Below, one piece after another: positions 1,642-2,580 of a stretch of DNA of 10,294 bases. Numbering within the stretch: position 1 is the first letter of the stretch; each line of letters opens with the position of its first letter. Location: the UHGV virus genome UHGV-1838671; one strand, 5' to 3'. The notes under the pieces are model-generated. The model had not been told where the DNA came from and did no database searches. It was given only the letters and a program-made list of their open reading frames with translations. Position numbers and translations under genes: made by a program. This DNA is from a virus.

Positions 1642-2288
1642 GCTGCACGCTCCCGCCCCTGGTTGTCTGTTGGTGACAGCGGAGAATTGCTGAATGCATT
1701 TGTTAATCCGCCAATATCCAACGCGTATCCAGGGTGTAGTTGCACTGCCGGGTCTTCGCACTGATTACCCCAAACATCGAAGCCATGAGACGACTGGCGG
1801 GCGAACAGTTCAATGCGAGAAACATCGCCTAACAATTGCACAAGTTTTTCACGAACGACATCTGGTTTTCTTGAATGCTCAAGCCGCGGTGCGGTAAATG
1901 ATTGAACGATCCCTGCATTAATGCGCGGAGGTAGTTTTCCCTTTACTGCAAACAGGCAATATTCACTATTTGCGCGAGTCATGTGTCCCATACCCATAAC
2001 CAGTTTATCTGGTTGTCGACTACCACATTTTATCCACGTGAAGCCCTTCATGGTCATCAGACGGAATCCCCAGGCTTCAACAACTTTTAGCGCTTCGAGT
2101 GGTTGTGTTGGCACCCACCACATTGCCAACAGACAGTTTTCATCGGCCAAATCCCACACAGGAAGGCGGCAGATATCCAGCACACTCATAACCGGATATT
2201 TAAAACCGGCACCGCGATTACCATCTGCGGCTTTGTCCCGGTATACCCAGGGGGGATCTGCATAGATTAGTGTGTATTTCTTAGTCAT
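1638..2288 (-). CDS. DNA N6-adenine methyltransferase, MT-A70 family
   Basis: Catalytic DPPW motif in LIYADPPWVY near the N-terminus. ATG at 2288 (MTKKYTLIYADPPW) preceded by GGGGTGG; the track's 2300 start is an upstream GTG. Overlaps the stop of the upstream gene by 8 nt. Confidence 0.85.
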   Translation of the reverse strand: MTKKYTLIYADPPWVYRDKAADGNRGAGFKYPVMSVLDICRLPVWDLADENCLLAMWWVPTQPLEALKVVEAWGFRLMTMKGFTWIKCGSRQPDKLVMGMGHMTRANSEYCLFAVKGKLPPRINAGIVQSFTAPRLEHSRKPDVVREKLVQLLGDVSRIELFARQSSHGFDVWGNQCEDPAVQLHPGYALDIGGLTNAFSNSPLSPTDNQGRERAA

Positions 2289-2580
2289 AAACCACCCCAC
2301 AACATCCTATGCCGCTATAGTCGCCACGGCGAAGGCCGTTACCTTTTGTGATACATTGGTCCCTGCGAACCGCGATCCTTGCACGCTCAACATCACCAGA
2401 AGCAACATCCATACACTGAAGCCAAAGGTGGGCGGCAATGCGGAACTGCCCTTTTTTCTCTCTTTCAATCGCGCGTTTTTCGATCTCTATCGCCGCAGGA
2501 GTAACGGCAACAACCTTTGAAGGGCTGCGCATTGAAACCTTGTTCATGTGATATTTTTCAAGTCGGCTTAACTTTCTCAC
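2281..2580 (-). CDS. Putative PerC/Pch-like small transcriptional regulator
   Basis: 99-aa ORF with GTG start at 2580 preceded by GAGGG. Segment AIEIEKRAIEREKKGQFRIAAHLWLQCM...ERARIAVRRDQCI resembles the PerC-family pattern (A.E.AG.WRRAA.WL..M...R..C) recalled from memory; no search was run. Confidence 0.45.
   Translation of the reverse strand: MRKLSRLEKYHMNKVSMRSPSKVVAVTPAAIEIEKRAIEREKKGQFRIAAHLWLQCMDVASGDVERARIAVRRDQCITKGNGLRRGDYSGIGCCGVVYD

Follow-up and report, generated by a model that had tools for sequence, protein, structure and literature searches.

A PerC-family gene of a distinct phage subfamily in the early left operon of a phiV10/epsilon15-like prophage

The open reading frame at positions 2281–2580 of the DNA analysed here (a stretch of 10,294 nucleotides from virus genome UHGV-1838671, called the window below) encodes, judging from its sequence, a genuine member of the PerC family. 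The protein is placed in PHROG 868, a distinct phage subfamily formed by the orthologues of epsilon15 gp31. The window represents the left arm of a phiV10/epsilon15-like (Uetakevirus) prophage adjoining guaA. We favor, with modest confidence, the reading that the product is probably a phage modulator made from the early operon, linked to induction and acting on nucleoid-protein or regulator complexes. The PerC name of this gene is already known, as RefSeq and several phage records carry it; the family finding is therefore correct but ordinary, and adds little by itself. An earlier note on this DNA had proposed a PerC/Pch-like regulator that converts the lysogen by switching on host virulence loci. 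The PerC-family identity and the operon position stood, but the virulence switch in the lysogen was not supported.

The reading frame that the earlier note had pointed to was recovered exactly, on the minus strand, with 99 codons. It is a real gene and no chance ORF, as indicated by the profile matches described below, the codon-position bias, the conserved start and an independent gene call. Compared with the epsilon15 orthologue, 49 of the 77 nucleotide differences fall at third codon positions, and the codon changes comprise 37 synonymous and 22 non-synonymous ones. The start position is the same across orthologues, with ATG in epsilon15 and BUCT554 and GTG in the window gene, and a Shine-Dalgarno-like motif (GAGAGGG) is present 9–10 nt upstream of it. 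PGAP called the same coordinates for the identical gene in NZ_CP122448.1 (WP_001228937.1, 'PerC family transcriptional regulator').

Homology to PerC and Pch, which had been claimed from a sequence motif, was borne out by profile searches. The Pfam model PF06069 (PerC) matched the protein with 30.1 bits against a gathering threshold of 22.6 (E 6e-7), and hhalign against a set of canonical PerC and Pch proteins gave a probability of 98.5% (E 1.5e-15) covering aa 31–82. In BLASTP, EPEC PerC was 40% identical over 60 aa (E 2e-10) and the PerC homologue of EcCIMP1, a PICI, 36% identical over 44 aa; O157 group-1 Pch shared 40% identity over 40 aa of the core. PHROG 868 covered the protein from end to end (1–99 of 99, E 6.5e-62), and in the reciprocal search EPEC PerC and Pch matched phrog_868. 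The protein also has the general traits of the family, being small (99 aa, within about 90–105 aa), basic (pI 9.83) and mobile-element-borne (prophage).

The motif itself was found as FRIAAHLWLQCM at aa 46–57, followed by the Arg-rich helix ERARIAVRRDQC at aa 65–76 with Cys76. The core residues present are E41, G44, R47, A49, A50, W53, R66, R73 and C76. All seven residues that are invariant in PerC and Pch (EPEC E12, R18, A20, A21, W24, R44 and C47) are kept, as E41, R47, A49, A50, W53, R73 and C76. At the five near-invariant positions, A37, G44 and R66 are kept and two are altered (L11 to R40, R19 to I48). The Pfam alignment places aa 35–80 on model positions 5–50 of 90 and ends there, with positions 51–90 unmatched. 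The window protein thus does not share the C-terminal half of canonical PerC and Pch, and a MAFFT alignment of this part showed just a short Y-S-x-I ... G-V-V likeness.

The placement given in the earlier note, inside the early recombination operon with an AlpA-like gene on one side and the methyltransferase gene on the other, proved right (Table 1). The PerC-like gene overlaps its neighbours at both ends. The methyltransferase ATG and the PerC-like stop codon share 8 nt (ATGACTAA). On the other side, the 38-aa ORF overlaps the alpA stop with ATGA and the PerC-like start with GTGA. This ORF has counterparts in epsilon15 (gp32) and Tyrion (gp33), and the epsilon15 orthologue of the AlpA-like protein is annotated as excisionase and transcriptional regulator. 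A 109-bp 'intergenic' gap upstream of the PerC-like gene, with a GGTCAGGA...TCCTGACC hairpin, was considered as a possible promoter or terminator site; we rejected this, as the stretch is the conserved 38-aa ORF. PADLOC matched a single protein, the methylase, as a type II MTase; the PerC-like protein and its small neighbours gave no defence-system match.

Table 1. Coordinates of the PerC-like gene, its conserved core and the surrounding features in the window
Feature	Position	Strand	Evidence and remarks
Tyrosine integrase	193..1443	+	Pfam; left end of the prophage, adjoins guaA (PGAP context guaA-int)
DUF1382 small protein	1447..1641	-	Pfam DUF1382 E 5.7e-30, PGAP; ends the leftward operon and converges with int
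MT-A70 family DNA methyltransferase	1638..2288	-	Pfam MT-A70 E 1e-21; PGAP start at window 2288; PADLOC MTase_II
PerC-family gene	2281..2580	-	99 aa, GTG start, TAA stop; 11.2 kDa, pI 9.83
Conserved PerC/ANR core, aa 35-80	2341..2478	-	Comprises core helices two and three plus part of core helix one; Pfam and NCBIfam ANR models both map here
38-aa hydrophobic ORF MSVLLRHWSKWSGWYLFLTSVSAWLYLLALIFREGWIK	2577..2693	-	phrog_17484 'membrane protein', E 2.1e-27; previously overlooked
AlpA-family HTH protein, putative excisionase/regulator	2690..2938	-	Pfam Phage_AlpA 24.2 bits vs cut-off 21; phrog_66 excisionase/regulator
RecT	2988..4010	-	Pfam RecT E 4.5e-57; PHROGs; upstream in the operon of the PerC-like gene
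RecE/YqaJ-like exonuclease	4020..4919	-	Pfam YqaJ E 1.3e-23; PHROGs; upstream in the operon of the PerC-like gene
Candidate early-left promoter TTGACA-17-AATCAT	5432-5404	-	Promoter scan; putative function
Two operator-like palindromes TTACC-N5-GGTAA	5390-5404, 5452-5466 (element 5390..5466)	-	Repeat and motif scans; putative function
CI-like repressor (HTH_3)	5524..6108	-	Pfam HTH_3; presumed controller of the leftward operon

On the minus strand from 5404 to 1447, the promoter and terminator scan found no promoter-like or terminator-like site, the promoter scan being a simple consensus match that would miss weak, activator-dependent or non-sigma-70 promoters within coding sequence. The nearest minus-strand promoter-like site to the PerC-like gene is the one at 5432–5404, beside the repressor gene. 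A terminator-like hairpin lies at this repressor gene (5503–5484), and the operator-like palindromes recur in the repressor/cro-like intergenic region. The CI-like repressor is identical to ORF21 of phage ZX5, which blocks lytic growth when overexpressed (PMC9782041). We therefore consider, from the overlapping stop and start codons, the lack of a promoter-like site of its own and the position of the 5432–5404 site by the repressor gene, that the PerC-like gene would be expressed on induction or infection and not in the stable lysogen. The repressor-controlled leftward operon would comprise small ORFs, the RecE-like and RecT genes, the AlpA/Xis-like gene, the 38-aa membrane ORF, the PerC-like gene, MT-A70 and DUF1382. 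The PerC-like protein would then be made after infection or prophage induction and be absent from the quiescent lysogen.

This arrangement bears on lysogenic conversion, in which the PerC homologue is expressed in the lysogen and activates host virulence loci through ler/LEE1-like promoters, as PerC and PchA/B/C do. The core homology to PerC and group-1 Pch is true, and the gene is carried by a prophage that occurs in 544 of the 5426 complete E. coli genomes, STEC strains included. O157:H7 is a host of phiV10 and the O157 typing phages, and group-1 pch genes likewise reside in prophages and are enhanced by SOS (PMC6265319). All of this is consistent with such a role. Nevertheless, we regard it as quite improbable. 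Besides the missing promoter-like site and the overlapping codons, the unmatched half of PF06069 and the moron-type position of canonical pch, elsewhere in lambdoid prophages, argue against it. Furthermore, membership in the family does not predict an effect on the LEE: it is hardly affected by Pch groups 2 and 3 (PMC6265319), and the PICI homologue EcCIMP1_025 represses LEE1 in experiments (PMC11773190). Finally, ZX5, whose copy of the protein is 98% identical, left HeLa adherence and virulence unchanged on lysogeny (PMC9782041).

The distribution of the gene speaks against an LEE activator as well. In tblastn, 36 phage records carried the PerC-like gene with 64–99% aa identity. Most of them are epsilon15/phiV10-type Uetakevirus phages and the remainder are related prophage-type records; their hosts are E. 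coli, Salmonella, Enterobacter and Klebsiella. To our knowledge, Salmonella, Enterobacter and Klebsiella hosts have no LEE. The order RecE-RecT-AlpA-(small ORF)-PerC-...-MTase-int is kept in epsilon15, Tyrion, BUCT554 and ST512-KPC3phi13.3. The window gene matches phrog_868 over its full length and lies near int, with the AlpA/Xis-like gene on one side and the methylase gene on the other, which identifies it as the Uetakevirus early-left-operon orthologue. As far as sequence can tell, the PerC-like gene belongs to the early core genes of temperate podoviruses of the epsilon15/phiV10 type. The integration site is also common to members of the group, with attB at the 3' end of guaA for ZX5, phiV10 and epsilon15 (PMC9782041). 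A plasmid tblastn search with the window protein (E up to 1) returned prophage-like copies only and did not reach pEAF perC, and a phage tblastn search with EPEC PerC gave a single fragmentary record, which led to an annotated O157 pch gene. In the literature searched, we found no experiments on the PHROG 868 group; the ZX5 paper covers the integrase, the repressor and the anti-repressor.

The AlphaFold2 (AF2) model of the protein contains helices at aa 6–17, 28–43, 46–59 and 63–83, with a pLDDT of 85–91 in the core and modest overall confidence (mean pLDDT 75, pTM 0.55). The core is predicted to be a three-helix TPR/MIT-like bundle without a helix-turn-helix. A PDB sequence search gave chance matches alone (E of 0.9 or higher), so no solved relative was recognized, and Foldseek of the model against PDB found nothing at E ≤ 1e-3.

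A predicted fold of this kind would suit protein binding, and we therefore weighed whether the protein could be an ANR-type anti-activator, which binds an AraC/XylS-family activator, H-NS or both and lowers the regulon of its partner, being a repressor and not an activator. ANR proteins (such as Aar and Rnr) are described as smaller than 10 kDa, with three conserved helices spanning the protein (PMC4983702), and bind AraC-type regulators and H-NS (PMC4983702; PMC11773190). Members of the family go together with an AraC/XylS-family partner, which regulates them. An ANR-like action has been proposed for a PerC-annotated homologue (PMC11773190). The NCBIfam ANR model (NF033650) recognizes the same core segment as the PerC model, both in the window protein and in its relatives, and the three predicted core helices fit the description of ANRs. 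The window protein scored 23.6 bits (E 3.4e-5) with this model, higher than the activators PerC (18.2) and Pch (13.6) and lower than EcCIMP1_025 (31.1), which represses LEE1; the score of the window protein is below the curated cut-off of 32, whereas the Pfam PerC match exceeds its own threshold. In addition, the window protein, at 11.2 kDa, is larger than ANRs are described to be and has an extra N-terminal helix. Neither the Pfam scan of the window proteins nor the PGAP annotation of the equivalent region revealed an AraC/XylS-family gene. We consider an ANR-type role unlikely. Since both models match the same relatives, the named PerC and ANR families look like one superfamily.

The neighbouring AlpA/Xis-like protein offers a different kind of partner. 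The PerC domain could be an effector or oligomerisation module for this separate HTH protein, and the pair would control excision or the early-to-late switch. From alpA through the 38-aa ORF to the PerC-like gene, each stop codon overlaps the next start, and the three genes keep their synteny throughout the phage group. Gram-negative PICIs, which all encode AlpA, sometimes carry PerC homologues (PMC6092414; PMC11773190). By Rosetta-stone logic, relatives that carry a winged HTH fused N-terminally to a PerC domain would support such a pairing, and one fusion relative is also located in a phage early operon, near MT-A70. However, the fused HTH is MarR/winged-helix-like and not AlpA (HTH_17)-like, the PerC gene of EcCIMP1 is not beside the AlpA genes, and canonical PerC and Pch function without an AlpA neighbour. 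An AlpA partnership is very improbable in our judgement.

For the favored reading, an induction-linked modulator made from the early operon, the relatives provide two precedents: Pch displaces H-NS/StpA/Hha from silenced promoters, and the binding targets of ANR proteins are AraC-type activators and H-NS. The window protein may, by analogy, reshape a complex of nucleoid proteins or regulators, either by protein contacts or by a non-classical DNA association. Transcription would thereby be tuned for the early programme of the phage itself, and effects on the host would be a by-product of induction. A pure protein-protein model may be wrong, because Pch reportedly does not co-precipitate with H-NS and associates with DNA in ChIP (PMC4764244). 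A broader scheme, which we put forward tentatively and regard as doubtful, is that PerC, Pch and ANR proteins are all TPR-like three-helix adaptors of a single superfamily, at home originally and most often in early operons of temperate phages and satellites. Their partners there would be nucleoid proteins (H-NS/StpA/Hha) or DNA-binding HTH modules, encoded next to them or fused to them, for instance AlpA or a winged helix. With such a partner they would lift the xenogeneic silencing of the element at induction, and the LEE activators and AraC anti-activators would be later exaptations. If this were true, the epsilon15/phiV10 gene would be a tractable model for the biochemical mechanism of PerC and Pch.

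The results call for caution in annotation. A prophage match to the PerC family is not evidence of virulence regulation, given that PerC relatives activate, ignore or repress the LEE and that this subfamily is a core early phage gene. Once studied, the gene could reveal how PerC-domain proteins serve their own mobile element, and could help to decide whether PerC/Pch and ANR proteins bind other proteins by a common mechanism.

Among known systems, the prototype of PF06069 is EPEC PerC (WP_000405638.1), encoded by perABC on pMAR2/pEAF. Both proteins are small and basic (89 aa in PerC and 99 aa in the window protein, pI 9.8 in both) and mobile-element-borne, and they have in common the core A-x3-E-x2-G-x2-R-x-A-A-x2-W ... 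E-R ... R-R-x2-C-I, followed by Y-S-x-I. They differ in that perC lies on a plasmid, downstream of the AraC-type perA and of perB, whereas the window gene lies in a phage early left operon. The window protein has a 33-aa N-terminal extension containing the additional helix, and a short Cys-rich tail (GIGCCGVVYD) replaces the C-terminus of PerC. The PHROG also differs, being 868 for the window protein and 994 for EPEC PerC. PchA/B/C, the group-1 proteins of EHEC O157:H7, are prophage-encoded like the window protein, which could plausibly share their anti-silencing mode. In contrast, pch is a moron between the lysis genes and the terminase of lambdoid prophages, and the window gene is in the int-proximal early operon. 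The C-terminal half of Pch is longer and unrelated to that of the window protein, and the H-NS/StpA/Hha-dependent de-repression of LEE1 was shown experimentally for Pch. The closest counterparts are the PHROG 868 orthologues, namely epsilon15 gp31 (79% aa identity), the phiV10 'putative transcriptional activator' (98%) and the 'PerC transcriptional activator' of O157 typing phages 9 and 10. They share the length, start position and synteny of the window gene, which differs from them in little beyond its GTG instead of ATG start and the missing DUF1317/gp30 gene between the PerC-like gene and the methylase.

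The PerC-like gene was found on the - strand exactly where the earlier note, made from the sequence alone, had placed it, and the motif named there was present (FRIAAHLWLQCM at residues 46-57, then ERARIAVRRDQC with Cys76). Several findings show that the ORF is a real gene. First, the Pfam PerC model matched the protein significantly (30.1 bits, E 6e-7; gathering score 22.6 bits), in agreement with the family proposed earlier, and PHROG 868 ("transcriptional activator") matched residues 1-99 of 99 (E 6.5e-62). In addition, third codon positions accounted for 49 of the 77 nucleotide differences from the epsilon15 orthologue; of the codon changes, 37 were synonymous and 22 non-synonymous. 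Finally, the start position is common to epsilon15 and BUCT554, in which it is ATG, and a Shine-Dalgarno-like GAGAGGG lies 9-10 nt upstream. Public annotation already has this gene, under this family name and at this position: in E. coli 85.0412, PGAP calls WP_001228937.1, a "PerC family transcriptional regulator", at coordinates identical to those of the ORF. The gene is carried by 544 of 5426 complete E. coli genomes, as determined with a 501-bp probe over it, and the match bears this annotation in all records listed. Our literature search found no paper testing the function of this orthologue group.

The window corresponds to the left arm of a Uetakevirus prophage of the phiV10/epsilon15 type. 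phiV10, YDC107_2, PAS61, ZX5 and others were 97-98% identical to it over about 70% of its length, and it starts directly after guaA, the known attachment site of such phages (PMC9782041). Strain 85.0412 matched the 501-bp probe at 100% identity. When the complete window was compared without gaps to the prophage of that strain (NZ_CP122448.1), 545 positions mismatched; the window therefore stems from a prophage or strain that is related to this one but not the same. The PerC-like gene lies between the AlpA-like gene and MT-A70, as had been described.

Features of the early-left region, leftward features ordered right to left (all - strand), with a PerC-domain protein of another phage in the last line
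Feature	Coordinates	Strand	Remarks
CI-like repressor gene	5524-6108	-	with terminator-like hairpin
Promoter-like site	5432-5404	-	consensus scan
Two small ORFs	between promoter-like site and RecE/YqaJ-like gene	-	
RecE/YqaJ-like gene	4020-4919	-	
RecT	2988-4010	-	
AlpA-like gene	2690-2938	-	
Hydrophobic ORF, 38 aa	2577-2693	-	conserved (MSVLLRHWSKWSGWYLFLTSVSAWLYLLALIFREGWIK); phrog_17484 'membrane protein'
PerC-like gene	2281-2580	-	99 codons, GTG start, TAA stop
MT-A70	1638-2288	-	
DUF1382	1447-1641	-	
int	193-1443	+	convergent with leftward operon
P0142	5001-5432 of L009		early-right operon, P22/lambda-like phage

The PerC-like stop overlaps the methylase start (ATGACTAA). The 109-bp stretch separating alpA from the PerC-like gene was rejected as intergenic, since the conserved 38-aa ORF occupies it; this ORF overlaps the alpA stop with its start (ATGA) and the PerC-like start with its stop (GTGA). 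Its counterpart is epsilon15 gp32, and it carries no PGAP annotation in NZ_CP122448.1. From 5404 to 1447, the - strand gave neither a promoter-like nor a terminator-like site in the consensus scan. Palindromes TTACC-N5-GGTAA at 5390-5404 and 5452-5466 flank the leftward promoter-like site, and the same palindrome occurs at 6164-6178 and 6212-6226, between the repressor and cro-like genes. The simplest reading of this anatomy is a lambda-PL-like, repressor-controlled early operon that would be switched on at infection or induction.

Further operator-like copies were observed at 6549-6563, 8495-8509 and 8557-8571. The last two are spaced by 62 bp, as is the pair flanking the leftward promoter-like site, and lie between a replication gene at 7657-8457 and an ORF at 8575-8919; this arrangement suggests a third repressor-controlled site. 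The 49-bp recT-alpA spacer contains a GC-rich hairpin (GCGGCGCC-ACAC-GCGCCGC, 2946-2975, - strand) without a T-tract, and in the epsilon15 record its equivalent bears the annotation 'stem-loop; transcriptional pausing'. That curated record (L005) also annotates 3649-3831 as 'serotype conversion: transacetylase repressor', a small gene whose operon-distal, int-proximal position corresponds to that of the DUF1382 gene. If the annotation is correct and the genes are homologous, the operon would have a conversion gene at its distal end, and this gene would have to be expressed in the lysogen.

We searched 1.84 billion representative proteins exhaustively with the orthologue profile. Only 63 clusters were obtained at E <= 1e-3, few of them matching at full length. 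Orthologues from a word-indexed search occurred in E. coli, Salmonella, Citrobacter, Klebsiella, Raoultella, Enterobacter, Kosakonia, Pluralibacter and Erwinia. By tblastn, 36 phage records carried the gene; most were epsilon15/phiV10-type Uetakevirus and the remainder related prophage-type, with E. coli, Salmonella, Enterobacter and Klebsiella as hosts. The order RecE-RecT-AlpA-(small ORF)-PerC-(DUF1317/gp30)-MTase-int is kept in epsilon15, Tyrion, BUCT554 and ST512-KPC3phi13.3. Given this distribution and synteny, the PerC-like gene is a core early gene of the epsilon15/phiV10-type lineage, phages of non-LEE hosts included. To our knowledge, the LEE is absent from Salmonella, Klebsiella and Enterobacter. 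A partnership of the PerC-like protein with the adjacent AlpA/Xis-like protein would fit this conserved order, and we give it very little credence.

The earlier note had read the gene as a lysogenic-conversion regulator acting on ler-like promoters. The direct evidence on this point is thin and negative: ZX5, whose copy is 98% identical, left growth, biofilm, HeLa adherence and virulence unchanged upon lysogeny (PMC9782041). Together with the placement in an early operon and the orthologues in phages of non-LEE hosts, this phenotype leaves the proposal unsupported, and a LEE-type activator of this kind is improbable despite the family match.

Family membership was examined by comparison with known members. 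In pairwise BLASTP the protein was 40% identical to EPEC PerC (from pMAR2) across 60 aa, 40% identical to a group-1 Pch of O157:H7 across 40 aa and 36% identical to EcCIMP1_025, a PICI protein, across 44 aa. In hhalign, the profile of 51 orthologues aligned with that of 14 canonical PerC/Pch-type sequences over 52 columns (probability 98.5%, E 1.5e-15), and the protein retains all 7 residues that are invariant in the canonical sequences. In the reciprocal search, phrog_868 was matched by EPEC PerC and Pch; their best family was phrog_994, which places the PerC-like gene in a subfamily distinct from theirs. Only positions 5-50 of 90 of the Pfam PerC model align. Unlike PerC and Pch, the protein begins with an N-terminal extension of 33 aa, which its orthologues conserve, and a short Cys-rich tail takes the place of the PerC/Pch C-terminal half. 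The NCBIfam ANR model (NF033650) scored 23.6 bits on the core, below the cut-off of 32; the scores of EcCIMP1_025, PerC and Pch were 31.1, 18.2 and 13.6. In all four proteins, PF06069 and NF033650 pick one segment of ~45 aa, and nearly all of 10 distant relatives tested showed this dual match. Judging from these model matches, PerC and ANR, although separately named, look like one superfamily, which echoes a remark in PMC11773190. We are highly confident of the family membership and operon placement of the gene.

AlphaFold2, supplied with a 51-sequence alignment, predicted helices at 6-17, 28-43, 46-59 and 63-83 (mean pLDDT 75, pTM 0.55; core 85-91) and a disordered tail. Foldseek against the PDB gave no match to this model at E <= 1e-3; MIT domains ranked top (E 0.2-0.5), and the Pfam MIT match was also sub-threshold. 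We gave limited weight to these weak matches, since promiscuous matching is typical of short helical bundles. The predicted core resembles three-helix protein-interaction modules of the TPR/MIT type, and neither the model, Foldseek nor Pfam gave any sign of a classical DNA-binding fold. Like PerC and Pch, the protein is strongly basic (pI 9.8; K+R 20 vs. D+E 11).

ANR members are three-helix proteins of <10 kDa that not only bind AraC-type activators (PMC4983702) but modulate H-NS as well (PMC11773190). The LEE responds little to Pch groups 2 and 3, and PchE represses csgD (PMC6265319); EcCIMP1_025 represses LEE1 (PMC11773190). The family members thus have in common a small helical module perturbing regulator or nucleoid complexes, with varying sign and target. 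An ANR-like anti-activator would agree with such repression and with the ANR match, sub-threshold as it is, and we consider it unlikely. On the basis of the shared module, we propose that the PerC-like protein is expressed early as a modulator for the phage programme. Most plausibly it would relieve or re-shape H-NS-type silencing, or titrate a regulator, and its effects on the host would be limited to induction. We lean slightly towards this package as a whole; our confidence in any specific target is much lower than that in family and placement.

Other relatives differ in their settings. The fusion proteins P0142 and P0137, of 139-153 aa, combine an N-terminal winged-helix (MarR-like, sub-threshold) with a C-terminal PerC/ANR domain. 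An MT-A70 methylase lies two genes downstream of the P0142 gene, and the leftward operon of the same phage contains a DUF1317 gene; both families also occur alongside the PerC-like gene in phages of the epsilon15 type. More speculatively, PerC, Pch and ANR could form one TPR-like adaptor superfamily with an ancestral anti-silencing role early in phages or satellites, the virulence regulators being exaptations. The canonical pch genes lie between the lysis genes and terminase of lambdoid prophages, and EPEC perC is on a plasmid downstream of the AraC-type perA, whereas the PerC-like gene is in a phage early operon.
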